A DNA stretch of 64,000 bases from an uncultured Clostridia bacterium (GCA_947630365.1 CANRHI010000001.1:3927-67926); one strand, 5' to 3'; shown: positions 1 to 9,758, counted from the first letter of the stretch. The notes: a model not told the origin generated them from the letters alone. Translations and numbers: made by a program.

Positions 1-174
1 GAGGTCCCATATTCCGGGCTGTATATCGTTCCCATTCGCGACGCCGATCTAAAGGAGCTTTCAGACGTCTTGAATTCCCAAAAGTTTAAGCAGTATATCT
101 GTAATGCGGGGGCATGCGTGAATGGAAAATCGAGGCGGGTGTGCCCGGAGGACATAGAAAATTATATCTATTGA
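1..174 (+). CDS. 3' end of an upstream gene that runs off the window (partial). The C-terminus loosely resembles the target-recognition (TaqI_C-like) end of N6-adenine DNA methyltransferases or type IIG enzymes.
   Basis: Frame 1 is open from base 1 to TGA at 172-174 (...GLYIVPIRDADLKELSDVLNSQKFKQYICNAGACVNGKSRRVCPEDIENYIY*). It has an LNSxxFxxY-type pattern. The stop lies 12 nt before the next ATG. It is absent from the ORF track because it has no start codon. Confidence 0.3.
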   Translation, partial: EVPYSGLYIVPIRDADLKELSDVLNSQKFKQYICNAGACVNGKSRRVCPEDIENYIY

Positions 175-186
175 GCGGAGATCGCA

Positions 187-2694
187 ATGGAAAAAGTTCA
201 GTTCGAAGTAAGTGCAAAAACGGCACGGCTGTTGGGACGCGAAAATATCAGCGACGTAGACGGTGCCATCATAGAATTGATCAAAAACTCGTATGATGCC
301 GATGCGGTATGCGTTTTTGTGCTCTTTTACTTGCCCTTTCCCAAAGTACCGAATCGCATCCCATATGAATTGGCTCACGAGGTGTTTCACGAGGGCGGCA
401 TCGAAAAACTTTTGGAATATTACGACGATACCGGGGTGGACTTCGGAAAGCGCGACGGGTTGACGAATACACAGGAAGCCCTGTTGAGCGATTTTTTATT
501 TTCAAAGAACTTCATATATGTGATAGACAACGGTTGCGGGATGGACGAGAACACATTGCGCAATGCGTGGATGAATATCGGGACAAACGATAAAGAGGAA
601 AGACGGGTCAGTCCCAAGAAAAGGGTAAAAACCGGGGCAAAGGGCATCGGACGGTTTGCTTTGGATAAGTTGTCGAAATCGACGACGGTATATACGAAGA
701 GCGAACACGATCGCCTAAAAAAGTGGGCGATCGACTGGGAACAATTTGAAACGGCAAACCTTTTGAACGAAGTAACGGCGACGATCGACGATGTCGATTC
801 GTCCTTTTATGAGTGTGTAAAAGCCGTCGCGAAAGATCGTTTTAAGACGTTCGAAAGGTACGGATGGGATACCGGGACGATCATTTCTCTTTCCCCCATC
901 AGAGAACCGTGGGACGAGGAGTACTTTGCCAAGGTCAACCGCAATTTGAGAAGCCTGTTTCCGCGCACCAACAGTTCGCAATTCGATATCTATGTGACAA
1001 ATGTGTTCTACCCGAGGTTGTCCTTCGAAAACGAGCGCTTTGCTCTCGGCGACACGGAATACGACTATCGGATCCTCGGCTCGTTTGACGGGAAAGACAC
1101 GCTCTCCGTTCAAATCTACAGAAATGAGATAGAAACCAAGAAAAAGAAGATAAGCAGGGTCATCGACGGAAAAAGTACGACGCTGCCCCTTGGCGATTTT
1201 TGGGAAAGGGAGGCGTTTCGGAAGGAGAATTTCCATCGATCGGATTTCTCAAGAGCCGTGGACTTTCGCTACTCCGCTCACGACCTGACAAAACTGGACC
1301 CGTCCGTATTAGAGGGGGTCGGAGCGTTTTCGGCGGAATTTTACTTTCTCAGGAATGCGCCCAGCCCGATAGAGATCACCAAGCCTGTAGTCACCTCCCG
1401 CCGAAAAGAGATCTTAACGAGCTTTTCCGGCATCAAGCTATACCGCGACGGCTTTAAGGTCCGCCCCTATGGGGAAGAGGGCGGCCCCGGTTTCGATTGG
1501 CTCTCCTTGGGGCAACGCGCCCAAAAAAGCCCGGCGGCGGTTTCCCACCCCGGCGGCGGATGGAGGGTAAGGACAAATCAAATTATCGGCGAAGTCCGCA
1601 TTACGAAAGACGGAAACCCCGGCTTAGAGGATATGGCGAACCGCGAGGGACTATCCATCAACGATAGTTTCAAAGTTTTTGTCAGTCTGATCCTAAAAAT
1701 GATAGAGACCTTCGAGGGCGATCGGCAATACGTCTTTCGGGAATATGCCGCATGGCTTCGGGAAGAGGAAGAGAGCCGCTCCGCGACCGATGCCGTTATC
1801 CAAGCCGCGAAAGAAAGCCAAGGAAGGACTCCCGAACGACCCAAAGAAGGGGATGGGGAACAAGCTCCTCCCCATTTCGATCCATCGAAATACGAGGACA
1901 CAATTGTCAAGTTGGACGAAGCTCGCGAGGAGGAAGAGCGCACCAACAGGACATTGATGTTATACAGCTCTGCCGGCGTTATGACCAATACGTTTTCTCA
2001 TGAATTAAGCCATATCATGACGCAGGTGGGAAGCAGAATGCAGCATTTGCGCGCCGTCATCCGAAGCAAGATCGGGGAATATGAGGGAAACGAATTTTTG
2101 AACCCCTACAAGATGATCGACGAAGCCGAGGAGGTGGATAAGCTTCTTGAAAACTGGATCGGGGTGTTGATGCATGGCATGAACGAAAGCGCCTTTGCAC
2201 GCAAATCGAATAATATTTACTCTATCGTAAGAGAGAGCCTGGAAGAATGGAGGCCGTTGCTGCGCCGCAAACTCATCGAGATCTCTCCCTTGAACGAGAT
2301 CGCCGAGATCGGGGCGTTTCAGTACACCATTTCACAAATCGATATCGTGATCATTCTGAACAATTTCTTGCTGAATGCGGCCTATTTTTTAGAGCAGTCC
2401 CACGGGAAGAAACGTCTCGTTACGATAAATTTATACGAGGAGAAGAATTCTATCGTTCTCGAAATGGAAAACAACGGGCCGCCTCTCGACGGGGTCTTTA
2501 TGAATAACCCGAACAGGATCTTCGAGGCAGGCGTCTCCACCAAGGTCACAAAAGAAGGAAAGGGCTCCGGCCTTGGCCTTTGGATCATGCAAATGTTGGT
2601 GCAAAGCAATTCCGGAAGTATTTATCCGATCGTTCCCAAGGAAGATGGTTTTGCATTGAAGATCTGTTTTCCGAAATCGGAGGGTAAATTATGA
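187..2694 (+). CDS. Fusion protein: N-terminal MORC/Hsp90-type GHKL ATPase plus C-terminal histidine-kinase core (H-box helix plus HATPase_c)
   Basis: 835 aa. N-terminal Bergerat motifs: ELIKNSYDAD (aa 30-39), DNGCGM (aa 114-119, nt 526-543) and GAKGIGRF. C-terminal motifs: H-box FSHELSH (His605, nt 1999-2001), N-box-like LNNFLLNAAYF, G1-like ENNGPP and G2 GKGSGLGLWI. Confidence 0.75.
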   Translation: MEKVQFEVSAKTARLLGRENISDVDGAIIELIKNSYDADAVCVFVLFYLPFPKVPNRIPYELAHEVFHEGGIEKLLEYYDDTGVDFGKRDGLTNTQEALLSDFLFSKNFIYVIDNGCGMDENTLRNAWMNIGTNDKEERRVSPKKRVKTGAKGIGRFALDKLSKSTTVYTKSEHDRLKKWAIDWEQFETANLLNEVTATIDDVDSSFYECVKAVAKDRFKTFERYGWDTGTIISLSPIREPWDEEYFAKVNRNLRSLFPRTNSSQFDIYVTNVFYPRLSFENERFALGDTEYDYRILGSFDGKDTLSVQIYRNEIETKKKKISRVIDGKSTTLPLGDFWEREAFRKENFHRSDFSRAVDFRYSAHDLTKLDPSVLEGVGAFSAEFYFLRNAPSPIEITKPVVTSRRKEILTSFSGIKLYRDGFKVRPYGEEGGPGFDWLSLGQRAQKSPAAVSHPGGGWRVRTNQIIGEVRITKDGNPGLEDMANREGLSINDSFKVFVSLILKMIETFEGDRQYVFREYAAWLREEEESRSATDAVIQAAKESQGRTPERPKEGDGEQAPPHFDPSKYEDTIVKLDEAREEEERTNRTLMLYSSAGVMTNTFSHELSHIMTQVGSRMQHLRAVIRSKIGEYEGNEFLNPYKMIDEAEEVDKLLENWIGVLMHGMNESAFARKSNNIYSIVRESLEEWRPLLRRKLIEISPLNEIAEIGAFQYTISQIDIVIILNNFLLNAAYFLEQSHGKKRLVTINLYEEKNSIVLEMENNGPPLDGVFMNNPNRIFEAGVSTKVTKEGKGSGLGLWIMQMLVQSNSGSIYPIVPKEDGFALKICFPKSEGKL

Positions 2695-3377
2695 AAAAAT
2701 ACACCATCGGGATCATAGACGAGGATTTGAAAGATGTGGATGCCATCAAGCGCACCATATGGTTCAACAAACCCGATCAAGTTGACGAGAAAGAGATCGA
2801 ATTCGTTGATTACAATGTTTTCGTCGAGTCGGACGACATCATAGACGAAATGGTCGAAAAGGCCCTTTGCGCGATCGTGGAGGATGCCATACGGCTCCTC
2901 ATCGTAGATTATAAGATCATTGTCAGCTCGTCTCTCATCGAAGGAAGCGAAATATTCCGGCGGCTGGAAGAAGTCGTGCCGAAATTTCCCATTGTTATCT
3001 TGTCCAATGTTCCCGACACCTGCTATGGCATAAAATTCGTGGACGCCGACAAGGTCTATGCAAAGGGACAATTTTTCAAAATAGAGGAGGGCTATTCGAA
3101 AGAAAAAACCTCAAATCTGTTCCGAAACATGGACCACTACAGAGAACGGAAGGCAGAATCGGCCTTAAAATATAAAATGTGTCTATCCGATTTGGAGAAA
3201 AACGGATATTCCGAGAAAACCTTAAAAGAACTTATCGAAGCGGAGAAATCGCTGGGCGATTTTTGTCCCTTGCAAGAATCCGAGATGGAAAAACAGTTGA
3301 ATGTCGGAGAGCTGAAAGTCGCCGTAGACCTGATCGCAAAAGCCAAAAAATTACTCGGAGAGGAAGATGAAACTTGA
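2691..3377 (+). CDS. Receiver (CheY/REC)-like domain protein with a helical C-terminal extension and no recognisable output domain
   Basis: 228 aa. Its ATG overlaps the upstream stop (ATGA at 2691-2694). It has an acidic pair IGIIDED, a candidate phospho-acceptor LLIVDYK (Asp73, nt 2907-2909), and IVILSN as a beta4 Ser/Thr position. The C-terminal ~90 aa are predicted helical. Confidence 0.5.
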   Translation: MKKYTIGIIDEDLKDVDAIKRTIWFNKPDQVDEKEIEFVDYNVFVESDDIIDEMVEKALCAIVEDAIRLLIVDYKIIVSSSLIEGSEIFRRLEEVVPKFPIVILSNVPDTCYGIKFVDADKVYAKGQFFKIEEGYSKEKTSNLFRNMDHYRERKAESALKYKMCLSDLEKNGYSEKTLKELIEAEKSLGDFCPLQESEMEKQLNVGELKVAVDLIAKAKKLLGEEDET

Positions 3378-4002
3378 GAATTTCAAATCGCACACGATAA
3401 AGAGAAGTCACTTGCCCGCAAAGAAGAATTATCGCGCCTATTTTGAGGATCTGAAAAAGGATTTCGGGGGAAGATGCGCCTATTGCAATTTGCACTTTCA
3501 AAGCATTACGACGCCCTTTGAGATCGATCATTTTATTCCGCAAAAAGAAATAAAGGACCGTAGGCCCGAGTTGATGGCCGAATACAGCAATCTGATTTTT
3601 GCCTGCAAAAAATGCAATATTGCCAAAGGAAGTCAATTTTCGGGAGATCTGTCTCTCGAAAAGCCCACGAATGAATTATTTTACGATCCTGCCGCCGTAG
3701 ATTACAATACGATTTTCTATCGGAACGAGTTGGGACTGATCGATTCGGACGACCCGAAGGGGAGGACGATGATCGGCAGTCTTAAATTATATAGGCCGAT
3801 CCACATTCTCGGGTGGCTGTGCGAAAAATTAAACTTTCTTGCGGACCGACTGGAGAAAAAAATCGATGCGGAAACCAATTCGGAGGTCAGGGAAACGTAT
3901 GAAGAGGCGCTGAACAAAATCAATCAACAATATCGTAAATTCATTCGGTTATTTATCTCGTCCTATAACGACGATCGATTCGATCTTCGTAAGGATACAT
4001 AA
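3367..4002 (+). CDS. HNH endonuclease (PtuB/TIGR02646-like stand-alone HNH)
   Basis: 211 aa. It overlaps the upstream gene by 11 nt. Motifs: CAYCN...EIDHFIP (His55, nt 3529-3531)...N...ACKKCNIAKG, i.e. CxxC...H...N...CxxC. Confidence 0.8.
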   Translation: MKLENFKSHTIKRSHLPAKKNYRAYFEDLKKDFGGRCAYCNLHFQSITTPFEIDHFIPQKEIKDRRPELMAEYSNLIFACKKCNIAKGSQFSGDLSLEKPTNELFYDPAAVDYNTIFYRNELGLIDSDDPKGRTMIGSLKLYRPIHILGWLCEKLNFLADRLEKKIDAETNSEVRETYEEALNKINQQYRKFIRLFISSYNDDRFDLRKDT

Positions 4003-4041
4003 TTCCTCAAGCATAATAACAGACAAACAGGGGGAAAAGAC

Positions 4042-5064
4042 ATGAGGAAGTGGCTTGCGTTGGCGTTGGCGGCGGTTGCCGCGGCGGCGATCTTCGTCGG
4101 GTGCGGCGAGACGGGAAGCGGAAATGGGCAGACGGGCTCGAGCGGCACGGAAAACGGTGCGCCTTCGAACGGAACGGACGGCGGTACAGAGGGCGGAGCG
4201 GAGAGCGGGACGGAAAACAAAGACCCGCAGTGCGGCACGGAAAGCGGAACAGAGGGCGAAACGGTGGAGCGGAAATTGCGCAAGATCCCCAAGAACAAAT
4301 ATTTCCCCGTGCAGATGGAGGAGCACATCGTGCGCTACGGGGATATTTCCCTCTACGGGCAGATCTACATCCCGGACACGGGGGACAAAAAGAATCCCGC
4401 CGTCATCCTGAGCCACGGTTTCAACGGGCACTATACCGATTTCCCGACGGAGTGCGTGCGCTTTTCCGAGCGCGGCTATGTGGTGTACGCCTTCGATTTT
4501 TGCGGCGCGCAGCAGGGCGGCAAGAGCACGGGGCGGTCGGCATCCGAGTACACGCCCTTCACGATGAAGGAAGATCTTCTCGCCGTCTTTGCGGACATTT
4601 CCTCCCTCGACTATGTGGATGAAACGCAGGTATTTCTCTTCGGCGGGAGCCAAGGGGGCTTCGTGACGGCGCTCACCGCGGCGGACGAGAGCATATGCGA
4701 GAAGGTCGCGGGGGTCGCTCTGTACTTCCCCGCCTTCAACATTCCCGACGATTGGCGGGGAAAGCCCGAGCAAAACACGCCGCTCATGGGCTACACCATC
4801 GGTGCGGAATTTATCCGTTCGGTGCAGGAGCTCGACCCCTTCGCCGTCATCGGGGCGTACAAAAAGGACGTTTGCATCGTGTGGGGGGATCAAGACGCGC
4901 TCGTGGCGAGAAAGTATATCAACGGCGCGATGGAAGTCTATGGCGACAAGGCGGAGCTGCATGTGCTCGAGGGCGCGGGGCACGGCTTCGGCGGCGCCGA
5001 CCTCAACACGGCGGTCAAGCTCGTCTTGAGCTTTTTGGAGGGGCGCACTTACGTCTGTGAATGA
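4042..5064 (+). CDS. Lipoprotein alpha/beta-hydrolase (S9/dienelactone-hydrolase-like esterase)
   Basis: Signal peptide with lipobox (AAAIFVGCGE), a Gly/Thr/Glu-rich linker, the nucleophile elbow GGSQGG, and a C-terminal GAGHGF catalytic His region. Confidence 0.7.
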   Translation: MRKWLALALAAVAAAAIFVGCGETGSGNGQTGSSGTENGAPSNGTDGGTEGGAESGTENKDPQCGTESGTEGETVERKLRKIPKNKYFPVQMEEHIVRYGDISLYGQIYIPDTGDKKNPAVILSHGFNGHYTDFPTECVRFSERGYVVYAFDFCGAQQGGKSTGRSASEYTPFTMKEDLLAVFADISSLDYVDETQVFLFGGSQGGFVTALTAADESICEKVAGVALYFPAFNIPDDWRGKPEQNTPLMGYTIGAEFIRSVQELDPFAVIGAYKKDVCIVWGDQDALVARKYINGAMEVYGDKAELHVLEGAGHGFGGADLNTAVKLVLSFLEGRTYVCE

Positions 5065-5158
5065 GCTCCTTGGGGCGCAAACGCGGCGATCTTTCAACGC
5101 GGCATAAAACGCCCGTGCGGGGAAGAACAGGGCTCGTGCGGGCGGAATTTGGAGGAAT

Positions 5159-5854
5159 ATGAAGGTCTGGGCGATCAGCGATCTGCACCTTTCCGGGCTC
5201 TCGAACAAGCCGATGGACGTGTTCGGAGAGGGCTGGGAAGGTCACTTCGAAAAAATCAAGCGCGATTGGGCGGAGAAGGTGAAAGAGGACGATCTCGTTC
5301 TTGTCGGCGGCGACACCTCGTGGGGCATGAAGCTCGACGAGGGCATGTACGACGTCGCGTCCCTTGCGCTCCTCCCGGGGAAGAAGATCTTCGTGCGCGG
5401 CAATCACGATTTTTGGTGGAACGGAATCACGCGGGTGCGCGAGCGCCGTCCCGACGACAGCTTTTTCTTTCTCCAAAACGACTGCGTGAAATTCGGGAAC
5501 GTCGTCGTCGCGGGGTCACGGGGGTGGACGGTACCGGGCAGCACAGACTTCACCGAGCACGACGAGCTCCTCTATCGCAGGGAGGCGGAGCGCTTCCGCC
5601 TTGCCCTCACGGAGGCGGAGCGGGTGAAGGAGGAGGGGGATATCCTCATCGCGCTCATCCATTTCCCGCCCATGAGCCTCAAGCAGGGCGACACGCTCTT
5701 TACCGAGCTCTTCGAGAAATACGGCGTGAACAAGGCGGTATTCGGGCATCTGCACGGGGCGGCCTACTTCCCCCTGCGCTCGGAGAGAAACGGCATCGAG
5801 TACATCCTCACCTCGTGCGACAAGACGCGCTTCTCCCTCACGGAAATTGTGTGA
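5159..5854 (+). CDS. Metallophosphoesterase
   Basis: Motifs AISDLHL, GGDTSWG, RGNHDFWW and GHLH, which are typical of calcineurin-like phosphoesterases. Confidence 0.75.
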   Translation: MKVWAISDLHLSGLSNKPMDVFGEGWEGHFEKIKRDWAEKVKEDDLVLVGGDTSWGMKLDEGMYDVASLALLPGKKIFVRGNHDFWWNGITRVRERRPDDSFFFLQNDCVKFGNVVVAGSRGWTVPGSTDFTEHDELLYRREAERFRLALTEAERVKEEGDILIALIHFPPMSLKQGDTLFTELFEKYGVNKAVFGHLHGAAYFPLRSERNGIEYILTSCDKTRFSLTEIV

Positions 5855-5940
5855 TTTGCCGTAAATTTCCAAAAAACCTATTGAAATTCCCCCGCAGATG
5901 TGTATAATATAGAGTAGAAGATGAGATAGGAGGAAGTATC

Positions 5941-6372
5941 ATGTATTCGTCAACACAAAAATTTATCAATCTGATGGATGAGAAGGGGATCAAATACGAG
6001 TATTGCGGCATCCTCAATGAGACAACGCAGAGCGAGACGGTCTCCATCCGCTACACGGGGAAGAACCTCAAGACCATCGAGGTGAATTTCACCTTCAACA
6101 AGAATTGCCGCGATGTGGCGATCGCCGTGTACAACATTGCCGTCGTGCCGGACAACAAGCTCGGCTCGACCATCATCGCGCTCAACGCCCTCAACTGCAA
6201 GTGGCGTTTCGTCCGCTTCTGCCTCGACCGTTCGGACAACACCGTGCAGGTCGAATCGGACGCCGTGTTCCGCGATACCGATGTGGACGAGATCTGCGTG
6301 GAGCTTCTCACCCGCGTCGTGAGCATCACGGACGAAGCGTACACGGACATCATGAAGGCCATCTACGCGTAA
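5941..6372 (+). CDS. YbjN-like (T3SS-chaperone-fold) hypothetical protein
   Basis: 143 aa with a clean ORF and an AGGAGG RBS at about 5928. The size and sequence pattern resemble the YbjN family. The assignment is from memory only. Confidence 0.45.
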   Translation: MYSSTQKFINLMDEKGIKYEYCGILNETTQSETVSIRYTGKNLKTIEVNFTFNKNCRDVAIAVYNIAVVPDNKLGSTIIALNALNCKWRFVRFCLDRSDNTVQVESDAVFRDTDVDEICVELLTRVVSITDEAYTDIMKAIYA

Positions 6373-6422
6373 TTTCCCGCCGCGCATTTCGGCGCGCCTT
6401 GCGGGAGATTTGTTTGAAAAAC

Positions 6423-6451
6423 AACGGCGGGGAAACTTCTCCGCCGTTTTT
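6423..6451 (+). terminator. Rho-independent terminator after the YbjN-like gene
   Basis: AACGGCGGGGA-aac-TTCTCCGCCGTT hairpin followed by TTTTT. Confidence 0.7.
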
Positions 6452-6556
6452 GCGTGTTCGCCGTTTTGGTACGCCTTCTCCGCCCGACTTGTTCGGCCCG
6501 AGAGGGTCGAAAAATTTGCCCGAGCGGGCGCGAAATCCTTTACTTTTCGCCATGCG

Positions 6557-6648
6557 TCTGTTATAATACAGACGCAAGCCCGCAGGGACGGCGCGGCGCC
6601 GTGTGCGCCCGATATGGTCTTGCGGCATTGCCGCAGGGCTTTTTTTCT
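6557..6648 (+). promoter_or_regulatory. pyr operon leader: -10-like TTATAAT (6561-6567) followed by an intrinsic terminator/attenuator (about 6616-6647), 25 nt before the pyrB start
   Basis: GTCTGTTATAATACAGAC, then GGTCTTGCGGC-att-GCCGCAGGGCT followed by T7. The upstream segment GCCCGCAGGG (6578-6587) closely repeats the 3' terminator arm GCCGCAGGG (6630-6638), differing by one extra C. It could therefore compete with that arm for pairing to the 5' arm, which would give alternative structures. Confidence 0.55.
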
Positions 6649-6671
6649 GTGAAAAACATTGCGGAGGCGCT

Positions 6672-7592
6672 ATGAAGCACAAGGACCTACTCGGGCTGTA
6701 CACGCTCGAAGCAGAGGAGATCGGCGAGATCCTCTCCCTCGCCGCCAAGATGAAGGCGCTCGTGCGCGCGGGGCAAAAGTCGCTCGACAGCTTAAAGGGC
6801 CGCTCCGCCGTCACGCTCTTCTACGAGAACAGCACGCGCACGCGGACTTCCTTCGAATTTGCGGCGAAGTTTTTGGGGGCGAGCACGGTGAACATTTCCG
6901 TCGCGACCTCCTCCGTGCAGAAGGGGGAGACCCTCGTCGACACGGGAAAGACGCTCGACGCCATGCACACCGACTTCATCGTCATGCGGCACCCCATGGG
7001 CGGCGCGCCGACGCTCCTTGGTAAGACGGTGAAGGCGCATGTAATAAACGCGGGCGACGGCATGAACGAGCACCCCACGCAGGCGCTCCTCGACATGCTC
7101 TCCATGCTCGAAGCATGGGGGACGCTCGAGGGGAAAACGGTTGCCATTCTCGGGGATATCCGCCATTCGCGCGTCGCCAAGAGCAATTTGTACGGGCTCA
7201 CCAAGATGGGAGCGACGGTGCGGATGTTCGCCCCGCGGACGCTCATGCCCGCGGGACTCGACTGCATGGGGGCGAAAATTTGCCGCTCGCGCGAGGAAGC
7301 GGTCGAGGGGGCGGACGCCGTGATGGGGCTTCGCATCCAGCTCGAGCGCCAGAAGGCGGGGAATTTTCCCTCCCTCGGCGAATATGCCAAATATTACGGC
7401 GTGAATGAGGACATTTTGCGCCTTGCGAAGGAGGGCGCGCTCGTCTTGCATCCCGGGCCCGTGAACAGGGGCGTGGAGCTCACGAGCGGCGTCATCGACG
7501 GGGAAACTTCCGTGATCACCGACCAAGTGCTCTCGGGCGTCGCCGTGCGCATGGCGGTCTTACAGCTCCTCGGGGAGGAAGAGATATGTTGA
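6672..7592 (+). CDS. pyrB: Aspartate carbamoyltransferase catalytic subunit
   Basis: MKHKDLLGL...STRTR...HPTQ...motifs and HPGP near the C-terminus. GGAGG RBS at 6664-6668. The track ORF start at 6603 is an upstream extension. Confidence 0.9.
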   Translation: MKHKDLLGLYTLEAEEIGEILSLAAKMKALVRAGQKSLDSLKGRSAVTLFYENSTRTRTSFEFAAKFLGASTVNISVATSSVQKGETLVDTGKTLDAMHTDFIVMRHPMGGAPTLLGKTVKAHVINAGDGMNEHPTQALLDMLSMLEAWGTLEGKTVAILGDIRHSRVAKSNLYGLTKMGATVRMFAPRTLMPAGLDCMGAKICRSREEAVEGADAVMGLRIQLERQKAGNFPSLGEYAKYYGVNEDILRLAKEGALVLHPGPVNRGVELTSGVIDGETSVITDQVLSGVAVRMAVLQLLGEEEIC

Positions 7593-8851
7593 TTTCAAAC
7601 GCCACATTGGTTTGCGGGAACAGGGAGAAGAGGGCGGACCTTCGCATCGAGAACGGAAAGATCGCGAGCATCGCGCCTCGGCTCGTCCCGCGGAAGAACG
7701 AGCCCGTTTTGGATTGCGCGGGGTACACCGTGCTCCCGGGGCTCATCGACATGCATGTGCATTTGCGCGAGCCGGGCTTCGAAAAGAAGGAGACCATCGA
7801 GAGCGGTGCGCGGGCTGCCGTCGCGGGGGGCTTCACCGCCGTCTGCTGCATGCCCAACACCAAGCCCGTTGCCGACAACAAGGTGGTCGTCTCCTATATC
7901 AAGCACCGCGGCGAAGAGGTCGGGCTGTGCAAAGTGTACCCCATCGGCGCCATTACCGAGGGGCAGAAGGGGGAAACGCTCGCCTCCATCGGCGGAATGA
8001 AGGCGGCGGGCGCGGTCGCCCTCTCCGAGGACGGCAAGAGCGTGGAAAACAGCAAGCTCATGGCGAACGCCATGCTCTACGCCTCCGACTTCGGGCTCAA
8101 GTGCCTGTGCCATTGCGAGGACAGGGCGCTTGTCGACGGCGGCGTGGTGAACGAGGGGTACTACTCCACCTTAACGGGGCTCAAGGGGAGCATCCGCGCG
8201 GCGGAAGATATCCTCATCGCCCGCGAGATCTGCCTCTCGGAGAGCCTGAACATCCCCGTGCACATCTGCCATGTTTCGACGTTCAGCGGCGTGCAGCTCA
8301 TTCGCGAGGCGAAAAAACGGGGCGTAAATGTCACCGCCGAGACCTGCCCGCACTACTTCACTTTGACGGACGCCGCCATTTCCTCTTTCGATACGAACGC
8401 CAAGGTCAACCCGCCGCTGCGGGAAGAGAAGGACCGCCTCGCCGTGATCGAGGGGCTCAGAGACGGCACGCTCGATTGTATCGCGAGCGATCACGCGCCC
8501 CATCACGAGGACGACAAGAACGTGGAATTCGACCTCGCGGCCTTCGGCATCAGCGGGCTGGAGACGAGCTTCGCCCTCTCCTACACCGCGCTCGTGAGGA
8601 GCGGCGCGCTCACCCTCCCCGCGCTTGTAGGCAAGATGAGCGCCCGCCCCGCCGAAATTTTGGGGCTCGCTGGCGGCAAGCTCGAAGTGGGCGCCCCCGC
8701 CGATATTACCGTCGTCGACCTGGCCGAGAAGTGGACGGTCGACCCCTCGAAATTCCTTTCCAAGGGAAAGAACACGCCGTTTCGCGGCATGGAGGTGTAC
8801 GGCAGCGTGAAGTACACCCTCGTGGACGGCGAGATCAAATTCTGCGGCTGA
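7586..8851 (+). CDS. pyrC: Dihydroorotase
   Basis: DMHVHLREPG metal-binding motif, and the ASDHAPH motif. It overlaps pyrB by 7 nt. Confidence 0.9.
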   Translation: MLISNATLVCGNREKRADLRIENGKIASIAPRLVPRKNEPVLDCAGYTVLPGLIDMHVHLREPGFEKKETIESGARAAVAGGFTAVCCMPNTKPVADNKVVVSYIKHRGEEVGLCKVYPIGAITEGQKGETLASIGGMKAAGAVALSEDGKSVENSKLMANAMLYASDFGLKCLCHCEDRALVDGGVVNEGYYSTLTGLKGSIRAAEDILIAREICLSESLNIPVHICHVSTFSGVQLIREAKKRGVNVTAETCPHYFTLTDAAISSFDTNAKVNPPLREEKDRLAVIEGLRDGTLDCIASDHAPHHEDDKNVEFDLAAFGISGLETSFALSYTALVRSGALTLPALVGKMSARPAEILGLAGGKLEVGAPADITVVDLAEKWTVDPSKFLSKGKNTPFRGMEVYGSVKYTLVDGEIKFCG

Positions 8852-8867
8852 CGCAAAAGGAGAGCAT

Positions 8868-9758
8868 ATGATCTTCGATACCCTCATCGAACGCATAACT
8901 ATGACGCAGGCGCCCATCTGCGTCGGGCTGGACACCTCCTTTTCCTACCTCCCCGAGAGCCTGAAAAAGGGCGCGGAGGACGAAAAGGACAGGGCGAAGG
9001 CCATCGTGAAATTCAACCGCGCCATCGTGGACGCCGTTTGCGACATCGTCCCCGCGGTAAAGGTGCAGATCGCCTACTACGAGGCGCTCGGCACGGCGGG
9101 CATGAAGGCGTTCAAAAAGACGTGCGAATACGCCAAGGAGAAGGGGCTCATCGTCATCGCGGACGCCAAGCGGAACGACATCGGCGCGACGGCGGCGCAG
9201 TACGCGCAGGCGTTTCTTTCCGAAGAGGCGCTCTTCCCCTGCGACCTTCTCACCGTGAACGGGTACTTGGGCACGGACGGCGTCGCCCCCTTCCTCGAGG
9301 AGGCGAAAAAGAGCGACAAGGGCGTCTTTGTTTTGGTCAAGACGAGCAACCCCTCCTCGGGAGAGCTGCAAAACTTGAAGCTCGAGGACGGGCGCACCGT
9401 ATATGAGTGCATGGGCGACATGGTGAAAATGTGGGGCGAGGGCACGGAGGGCAAGTACGGCTACTCCCGCGCGGGGGCGGTCGTGGGGGCGACGTACCCC
9501 GCCGAGGCTGCCGCTCTTCGCAGCCGCCTTCCCCATACCTTCTTCCTCATTCCCGGCTACGGCGCGCAGGGCGGGAACGCCGAAATGCTCAAGACCTGCT
9601 TCCATGCGGGCGGCATGGGAGGCATCGTGAACAACTCCCGCGGCATCCTCTGCGCCCATCAAAAGAGGGGCGGGGACCCTGCGGAAGCGGCGCGGGCGGC
9701 GACGCTCGACATGAAGAAGGATATCCTTTCCGTCTTGGGGGAAATATGCGCGAAGTAA
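8868..9758 (+). CDS. pyrF: Orotidine 5'-phosphate decarboxylase (long type 2 form)
   Basis: 296 aa. Motifs: VGLD, DAKRNDIG and PGYGAQGG. Sits in pyr operon context. Confidence 0.85.
   Translation: MIFDTLIERITMTQAPICVGLDTSFSYLPESLKKGAEDEKDRAKAIVKFNRAIVDAVCDIVPAVKVQIAYYEALGTAGMKAFKKTCEYAKEKGLIVIADAKRNDIGATAAQYAQAFLSEEALFPCDLLTVNGYLGTDGVAPFLEEAKKSDKGVFVLVKTSNPSSGELQNLKLEDGRTVYECMGDMVKMWGEGTEGKYGYSRAGAVVGATYPAEAAALRSRLPHTFFLIPGYGAQGGNAEMLKTCFHAGGMGGIVNNSRGILCAHQKRGGDPAEAARAATLDMKKDILSVLGEICAK

Follow-up and report, generated by a model that had tools for sequence, protein, structure and literature searches.

What could a single polypeptide that joins a MORC/Hsp90-type ATPase to a histidine-kinase core be doing in a bacterial cell? 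The question is raised by a gene on the plus strand (187 to 2694) of a 64,000-nucleotide (nt) stretch of DNA from an uncultured Clostridia bacterium (GCA_947630365.1 CANRHI010000001.1:3927-67926), which we call the window. We found that the operon setting makes the kinase part of a restriction-like phage-defence cassette, because its gene adjoins genes for a methyltransferase, a receiver and an HNH nuclease. Positions 1 to 4002 of the window are likely to be a horizontally acquired cassette of the Ambrosia type, named after an experimentally validated anti-phage system of Pseudomonas aeruginosa (2025, bioRxiv 10.1101/2025.09.30.679545). The cassette would work by a relay from an ATP-driven clamp to His605 of the kinase, to Asp73 of the receiver and on to the nuclease. 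Our case is built on domain identities, conservation of catalytic residues, conservation of the operon and homology to Ambrosia, from which we infer the mechanistic steps.

The kinase gene starts with ATG and encodes 835 amino acids, resembling AbrB, the kinase of Ambrosia, in its double-GHKL architecture. Pfam places HATPase_c_3 at the N-terminus (E-value 2.1e-14) and HATPase_c (7.5e-11, residues 718-814), together with HATPase_c_5, in the C-terminal part. The same pair, an N-terminal HATPase_c_3 and a C-terminal HATPase_c, was present in all 30 homologues that we scanned with Pfam. We modeled the protein with AlphaFold2 from 67 input sequences (mean predicted local distance difference test, pLDDT, 83.4; predicted template-modelling score 0.81), and the Foldseek neighbours of the model, drawn from the Protein Data Bank (PDB), fell into two classes. 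One comprised the ATPase modules of MORC2 (9cdh, 9cdj, 5of9), GRP94/Hsp90 and SMCHD1, aligned over about 560 columns; the other comprised the DHp-CA cores of HK853, YycG, CpxA, CckA and ZraS, over about 260 columns with a template-modelling (TM) score of about 0.6 relative to the target. An earlier note on this DNA had claimed two genuine Bergerat/GHKL modules on one polypeptide, and Pfam, the model with its Foldseek neighbours, and residue conservation among 75 aligned full-length relatives drawn from a wide range of phyla all uphold this. Neither a single GHKL fold nor an H-box lying off the DHp helix was found by the hidden Markov model (HMM) and structure analyses.

The N-terminal module (residues 1-205, 187 to 801) was identified as a MORC/Hsp90-type Bergerat ATPase from Pfam, alignment and conservation. 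All of the N-terminal motifs quoted in the note are present: ELIKNSYDAD spans E30 to D39, DNGCGM spans D114 to M119 and GAKGIGRF spans G150 to F157. Twelve positions in these motifs are invariant in 75 of 75 relatives, namely E30, N34, D37 and D39 (motif I), D114, G116 and G118 (motif II, D114-G118), and G150, K152, G153, G155 and R156 (the lid, G150-R156). Bergerat motifs I to III are thus complete, with the catalytic Glu and Mg-binding Asn in place, as MORC and paraMORC proteins require. The module also resembles the N-terminus of the BbrUII/HgiDII restriction enzymes (NCBIfam NF050001, E-value 9e-12, residues 108-270). Between motifs I and II we noticed a partly helical, clade-specific insertion of about 45-60 amino acids (residues ~44-108, window 316-510), which is absent from AbrB.

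The roughly 350 residues that follow had been described as unrecognisable; they now resolve into a middle domain, a long helix and a linker. Residues 206-492 (802 to 1662) form a beta-rich, transducer/S5-like middle domain, as judged from the AlphaFold2 secondary structure, Foldseek and conservation. The S5/transducer comparison covers the ~560 Foldseek columns against MORC2, SMCHD1 and Hsp90 at TM scores of 0.4-0.49 relative to the target, and is a comparison of folds with no residue-level mapping. The domain has its own invariant residues (R420-D421, Y428-G429, D437-W438, D482 and R486) within the block YRDxF(K/R)V(R/K)PYG...DW...D482..R486, and it is conserved in P. aeruginosa AbrB as well, according to the BLASTP alignment. 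Invariant R420 and R/K426 are the candidates for basic residues of this domain that could reach the ATP site. A long helix (493-544) and an acidic disordered linker (~545-565) come next (1663 to 1881); the model draws helices at 493-531 and 534-544, and pLDDT falls below 50 at 554-563. The charged segment that the note had picked out, EEEESR...EGDGEQ, is real and corresponds to this linker, which is hypervariable, differing in length and composition among the aligned homologues.

The C-terminal part has the features of a histidine-kinase core. A DHp-like helical hairpin (residues 566-662, 1882 to 2172; model helices 566-613 and 640-662) carries the predicted phospho-acceptor His605 (codon 1999-2001) followed by Glu606, and was assigned from conservation, AlphaFold2 and Foldseek. 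His605 is kept in 75 of 75 relatives, and position 606 is E or D in every one of them; the NCBIfam CpxA alignment to the kinase begins at residue 603. The CA domain (HATPase_c, residues 673-829, 2203 to 2673) is defined by the Pfam match, by alignment with HK853 and by conservation. Its N box (N726/N730) is invariant in the 75 relatives, as are G795 and G797 of the G2 box (G793/G795/G797), and the F box is conserved. Sequence searches of the PDB with the kinase returned marginal matches to the CA domain only.

The G1 box departs from the canonical form, so that the C-terminal set of H, N, G1 and G2 boxes predicted in the note holds for the H-box on its DHp helix and for the N and G2 boxes, and fails for G1. 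Here we use the term window clade for the gut-associated kinase clade that includes the window protein and accounts for 14 of the 75 aligned relatives. In this clade the box (N762-N763-G764-P, window 2470-2484) reads E-N-N-G-P-x, not DxGxG. Of the 75 relatives, 61 have D at its first position and the 14 that form the window clade have N, and the NNGPx form was seen in at least 90% of 67 close homologues. The HK853 alignment sets N762 opposite D411. We rejected a dead pseudo-kinase as the main account of the second GHKL module, given the invariant H605, N box and G2 box.

Immediately downstream lies the gene for an AbrC-like receiver of 228 amino acids (2691 to 3377, plus strand), whose start overlaps the kinase stop (ATGA) behind a GGAGG ribosome-binding site. 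The assignment comes from AlphaFold2, Foldseek and a family HMM; the window protein itself has no Pfam match, and Pfam Response_reg matches 23 of its 42 close relatives. The model (pLDDT 82.8) shows a (beta-alpha)5 fold and, in the C-terminal half, nothing but helices, with low confidence after residue 190, and its best Foldseek neighbours are RcsB and other receiver domains. All five signature residues of a receiver are present, as D10, E11, D73 (codon 2907-2909), S105 and K125. Among 78 relatives (residue conservation of the receiver and HNH proteins was read from up to 78 relatives per alignment), position 10 is D in 71 and E in 7, D/E11 is kept in 77, D73 in all 78, T/S105 in 76 and K/R125 in 72. 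No helix-turn-helix (HTH), winged helix-turn-helix (wHTH) or Trans_reg_C DNA-binding family was matched by Pfam in 47 receiver relatives (42 close and 5 diverse), and two of the five diverse ones come from the loci closest to AbrC. A PDB sequence search with the C-terminal half gave no interpretable relative.

The receiver is larger in some sister loci. In two from Planctomycetota, L078 (4983-9207) and L080 (2554-6795), a C5-cytosine methylase and a double-GHKL kinase are followed by a protein of 375-378 amino acids, in which a receiver-like N-terminus is fused to a domain of about 250 amino acids with a TPHCHL motif and no assigned family. In a third, from Hydrotalea (L082, 4366-9313), a HerA-type ATPase and a kinase with a weak HEF_HK match precede a receiver fusion of 392 amino acids.

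The third gene (3367 to 4002, plus strand) overlaps the receiver gene by 11 nt and encodes an AbrD-like, PtuB-type HNH endonuclease of 211 amino acids, identified by Pfam (HNH, E-value 1.7e-9), PADLOC (PtuB, 1.5e-19) and BLASTP. The NCBIfam retron/PtuB HNH models match it below their cut-offs (30 against 150 bits for the PtuB model). H55 (codon 3529-3531), predicted to be catalytic, N75 and N84 are invariant among the relatives, which also share a CxxC...CxxC zinc site; nothing interpretable outside the HNH core came from a PDB sequence search. Taken together, the catalytic residues of both ATP sites, H605 of the kinase, D73, T105 and K125 of the receiver, and H55, N75 and N84 of the nuclease are invariant or nearly so in the 75-78 relatives aligned.

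Upstream of the kinase gene, the window opens inside an AbrA-like N6-adenine DNA methyltransferase gene, of which it holds the 3' end (1 to 174, plus strand, 57 codons and the stop), the 5' part lying outside. The first frame of this segment ends in GKSRRVCPEDIENYIY before the stop codon, in agreement with the C-terminal consensus of methyltransferases upstream of homologous kinases, on which the assignment is based. A metagenomic contig with an identical kinase protein, L001, extends the view: its upstream gene encodes 411 amino acids, is truncated at the 5' side by the contig end and matches Pfam Eco57I (E-value 7e-16). The two sequences differ by a 1-nt insertion or deletion at the methyltransferase 3' end (L001 ~1200-1237, window ~135-174). 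Since the window reading fits the family consensus, the L001 version appears to be the frameshifted one.

The cassette also stands apart in composition, with a GC content of 45-50% over 1-4002, where the remainder of the window has about 60%. To its right (4042-9758, GC about 59-63%) lie host housekeeping genes for a lipoprotein-like alpha/beta hydrolase, a metallophosphoesterase and a YbjN-like protein, followed by pyrB, pyrC and pyrF. A scan of the whole window for transfer RNA genes found none, so no tRNA-linked integration site was seen. Over 1-4300, promoter-like sites were no commoner than by chance; terminator-like matches numbered 13, against 5.7 ± 2.2 in shuffled sequences, and were mostly intragenic or on the opposite strand, with none at the end of the cassette.

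The note had suggested looking for the same fusion in other genomes, and we found it widely. More than 120 full-length kinase homologues with 41-63% identity occur in metagenomes and genomes, and a survey that scanned one genome per species found kinase relatives in at least 565 species genomes. Searching with the N-terminal 545 residues gave 346 clusters (50% identity) at E-values up to 1e-30; almost all of the best 150 have lengths of 750-885 amino acids, so that in this family fusion to a kinase is the norm and no curiosity. Across 83 surveyed loci, the order kinase-receiver-HNH is kept in 74, and the exceptions are mostly contig ends. A related N6 methyltransferase, collected with jackhmmer, is found in 71 of the 83, placed directly upstream, as in the window clade, or else right behind the HNH gene. 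The hosts include Clostridia, Streptococcus and other Firmicutes, Bacteroidota, Proteobacteria, Actinomycetota (Eggerthella among the named hosts), Planctomycetota, Chloroflexota, Nitrospinota, a bacterium of the candidate phyla radiation and the methanogenic archaeon Methanimicrococcus. Conjugative plasmids carry the cassette too, annotated as 'sensor histidine kinase / hypothetical protein / HNH endonuclease / N-6 DNA methylase'.

Several irregular relatives were seen in these surveys. The kinase gene is apparently truncated or split in L013, L015, L021, L064, L067, L068 and L081, and in L067 a Mu-type transposase gene and an AbiEii gene adjoin it; such loci point to a cassette that has decayed or been disrupted in part of its hosts, or to errors of assembly. 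Conjugative plasmids of Campylobacter jejuni and C. coli (about 50-60 kb; hits H7-H20) encode a shorter relative, annotated as a histidine kinase, that matches kinase residues 10-519 only, at 26.5% identity. Two unannotated human-gut contigs labelled 'Bacteriophage sp.' (MT837790 and MT838277) encode distant, near-full-length kinase relatives at 23% identity.

Ambrosia comprises AbrR (a HipB-like XRE protein), AbrA (an N6 methyltransferase), AbrB (a HATPase_c_3/HATPase_c kinase of 747 amino acids), AbrC (a receiver) and AbrD (an HNH protein), and point mutants in each gene abolish defence, including AbrB N40A, AbrC D60A and AbrD H60A (10.1101/2025.09.30.679545). Apart from AbrR, the window cassette corresponds to it gene for gene and in the order of the genes: an N6 methyltransferase, a HATPase_c_3+HATPase_c kinase, a stand-alone receiver and a PtuB/retron-type HNH nuclease. 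We took the Ambrosia protein sequences from Table S1 of the preprint, using the first 400 residues of AbrB. The preprint sets HMM thresholds of 100 (AbrA), 500 (AbrB), 150 (AbrC) and 200 (AbrD) bits (10.1101/2025.09.30.679545); here homology was judged by our own HMMs and BLASTP. AbrB residues 1-400 matched an HMM of the window clade alone with an E-value of 4e-68, and BLASTP aligned the window kinase with AbrB residues 1-399 at 27% identity over 491 columns (2e-41). AbrD scored 5e-43 against the family HMM and showed 28% identity to the window nuclease (BLASTP, 6e-13). AbrC scored 1e-33 against the family-wide iterated receiver HMM; with the close-clade receiver profile the hhalign match was weak (0.14), so that homology is clear only with the family-wide model. 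The residues mutated in Ambrosia align with invariant window residues: AbrB N40 with N34, AbrC D60 with D73 and AbrD H60 with H55.

There are differences as well. The window kinase has 835 residues against the 747 of AbrB; its clade has the extra GHKL insertion and the NNGP G1 box; and the host is a high-GC, Firmicute-like genome from a different phylum, whereas Ambrosia was reported, from a cblaster/RefSeq survey, in Gammaproteobacteria, 76% of them Pseudomonadales (10.1101/2025.09.30.679545). The XRE regulator is not conserved over the related loci, and in many relatives the methyltransferase gene comes after the HNH gene. On the sequence comparisons, we regard the window cassette as a divergent, distant member of the Ambrosia-type systems already described, and not as a new kind of system.

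Other known systems share parts of this arrangement. Soluble proteins that combine HATPase_c_3, a DHp ('HEF_HK') and HATPase_c in restriction-modification (R-M) neighbourhoods were reported by Bellieny-Rabelo et al. (2021, PMC8011034), mostly from proteobacteria and mainly linked to C5-cytosine methylases and Vsr. They adjoin a divergent receiver ('Response_reg_2') without an output domain, and HNH nucleases are also associated (PMC8011034). The domain order in a soluble kinase, the adjacent output-less receiver and the R-M and HNH association are the same in the window. However, Pfam HEF_HK (PF19191) and Response_reg_2 (PF19192) did not match the window proteins at E-values up to 1, nor did HEF_HK match 30 kinase relatives or Response_reg_2 42 receiver relatives at up to 0.1, and the diverse members gave no match either. 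The sole HEF_HK match was sub-threshold (5.6e-4), in the distant relative L082, which shows that the model is present in the library. Membership in that family was therefore rejected, and because its Pfam models miss the window proteins and about 45 relatives, it is best seen as a sister branch of the window family.

MORC and paraMORC GHKL+S5 ATPases were described as R-M components, sometimes with HNH nucleases, by Iyer, Abhiman and Aravind (2008, PMC2292703), a paper with no mention of a kinase fusion. The window protein shares with them the N-terminal Bergerat ATPase with intact motifs, the middle domain and the methylase and HNH context, but it adds a C-terminal histidine-kinase core and is partnered by a receiver, not a helicase. 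The BbrUII/HgiDII-family type II enzymes (NF050001) have a similar N-terminal HATPase_c_3 module; unlike the window protein, which scores 44 against their 550-bit cut-off, they carry their own nuclease and no kinase core. Septu (PtuA-PtuB) and the PtuAB pair of retron Ec78 likewise combine a PtuB-type HNH protein with an ATPase from the same operon. In the window a GHKL kinase takes the place of an ABC/AAA_15-type PtuA, and a receiver is interposed; with no PtuA gene in the cassette and the GHKL kinase as its sole ATPase, we rejected a Septu assignment.

A parallel in logic, a kinase that acts on a receiver that acts on an immune effector, is Detocs (DtcA-DtcB-DtcC; Rousset et al. 2023), in which a cytoplasmic histidine kinase reportedly senses infection and phosphorylates a receiver controlling the effector. 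Detocs is said to differ in its sensor domain, and to have both a receiver that serves as a buffer and a receiver-PNP effector through which ATP is depleted. The window cassette has one receiver without an enzymatic domain, a separate HNH nuclease and a methyltransferase. A Detocs assignment was rejected, as the defining partners, the buffering receiver and the receiver-PNP fusion, are missing. PADLOC, in its 2023 library (in which the presence of Detocs models is unconfirmed), gave only weak matches for the kinase (REase_II, 7e-5, and PDC-M43B) and none for the receiver, and named no system for either.

How might the cassette work? The N-terminal MORC/Hsp90-like GHKL module and the middle domain would form an ATP-driven, dimerising clamp that senses infection, most plausibly by engaging DNA. 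Its conformational cycle would be relayed through the long helix and the linker to the DHp-CA core and lead to autophosphorylation of His605. The phosphoryl group would then pass to Asp73 of the receiver; once phosphorylated, the receiver would license the HNH nuclease, whose target would be invading DNA. For the methyltransferase, the probable role is to mark self DNA or to tune sensing. The note had proposed that an ATP-driven, MORC-like clamp acts as the sensor for phosphotransfer, and this fits the architecture and the adjacent cognate receiver with its five signature residues. Nucleic-acid sensing by the clamp, phosphotransfer and nuclease switching are, nevertheless, steps that we infer from sequence.

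For the output step, we favour direct activation at the protein level within a complex of kinase, receiver and nuclease. PtuB-type HNH nucleases depend on an ATPase partner. Because the receiver relatives have no DNA-binding Pfam family and the C-terminal half is all-helical with no PDB relative, and because the reading frames overlap, a PtuB-type HNH protein needs an ATPase partner and sister loci have the receiver joined to an extra domain of about 250 amino acids, we rate direct control somewhat above a transcriptional output for this clade. Our more specific proposal is a tentative one, held at less than even confidence: the phosphorylated receiver, through its helical C-terminal half, may directly activate the PtuB-like nuclease, and the MORC-like clamp may read a DNA trigger such as methylation state or free ends. 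If true, the cassette would be a phosphorylation-gated restriction enzyme.

Several observations weigh against an Ambrosia-type phosphorelay in the window. None of the Pfam DHp families (HisKA, HisKA_2/3, HEF_HK) matched the H-box region in the window kinase and 30 homologues, and pLDDT near His605 is only 61-66. In the window clade, the adenine-contacting Asp of the G1 box is changed to Asn, a change that abolishes ATP binding in other GHKL proteins. It may mean altered nucleotide use, and because Asn takes the place of the adenine-contacting Asp, kinase activity in this clade could be weak or altered. Identity to AbrB is low, and the whole comparison with Ambrosia stays at about 27-28%. An AbrR-like XRE gene was found in the flanks of only 16 of 83 loci and is not consistently adjacent. 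In the window its place would be upstream of the first position, and contig L001 ends inside the methyltransferase gene; in the Eggerthella locus, an XRE gene is divergent from the methyltransferase gene. The Ambrosia experiments add three further points. Phage passaged through cells with AbrA only remained sensitive, so that AbrA does not act as a classical protective methylase would; reporters in place of abrA or abrD were near-silent at rest and strongly induced by infection; and AbrC was reported with a predicted wHTH, for which the preprint proposes a transcriptional output (10.1101/2025.09.30.679545). A dependence of methylation on the kinase complex would likewise lead one to expect the AbrA-only result.

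The reporter induction and the wHTH, with the loss of defence in AbrC D60A, favour an alternative that we think somewhat unlikely here, namely an Ambrosia-type cassette with a purely transcriptional output, in which the phosphorylated receiver binds DNA and induces the methyltransferase and HNH genes, and the nuclease is constitutively active. It is opposed by the lack of any HTH, wHTH or Trans_reg_C Pfam match in the 42 close and 5 diverse receiver relatives, and by the predicted C-terminal half, which has helices only and no wing (at low confidence after residue 190) and no PDB sequence relative. Further, the receiver gene lies inside the very operon it would regulate, with overlapping frames, sister systems fuse the receiver to effector-sized domains, and the XRE protein could instead account for the induction.

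A more conventional account would be an R-M system with a paraMORC-type motor, the GHKL+S5 part looping or translocating DNA for the HNH nuclease and the kinase and receiver parts being relics without phosphotransfer. Such ATPases are known R-M parts, sometimes beside HNH nucleases (PMC2292703), the N-terminal module is like that of the BbrUII/HgiDII restriction enzymes, and the second module has a degenerate G1 box in the window clade. We nevertheless judge this account improbable: His605, E/D606, the N and G2 boxes and the receiver quintet are invariant or nearly so across phyla, which is unexpected for relics, AbrC D60A abolishes Ambrosia defence, and AbrA methylation alone gives phage no protection (10.1101/2025.09.30.679545). 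Least credible of all, to our mind, is a two-component system of the ordinary cytoplasmic type, serving environmental signalling and neighbouring an R-M pair by chance. RefSeq does label the relatives plainly as 'sensor histidine kinase', but the four genes are collinear across distant phyla and plasmids with overlapping frames, low GC content sets the cassette apart as an island, no output domain is recognisable in the receiver, and the homologous Ambrosia was shown to defend (10.1101/2025.09.30.679545).

With the Ambrosia-type cassette as the preferred reading, the double-GHKL architecture is not novel, since it was described computationally in 2021 and tied to a validated defence system in 2025. 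What value remains is in the wider distribution, in the G1-box variant and in the doubt cast on the transcription-factor model. The cblaster/RefSeq survey of the preprint gives far too narrow a picture of the spread of the Ambrosia-type cassette, relatives of which occur in at least 565 species-level genomes, bacteria and a methanogenic archaeon among them, and also on conjugative plasmids. Four genes, in either of two orders, make up its conserved core, and the XRE regulator is not one of them. The absence of computational support for a DNA-binding domain in the receiver brings back the question of what turns the nuclease on, and the gut-associated variant clade combines an odd kinase G1 box with an insertion in the sensor ATPase. 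If the coupling of clamp to kinase is worked out, it would show how the cycle of a MORC-type ATPase is converted into a phosphorylation signal, which would be relevant both to bacterial immunity and to MORC biology.

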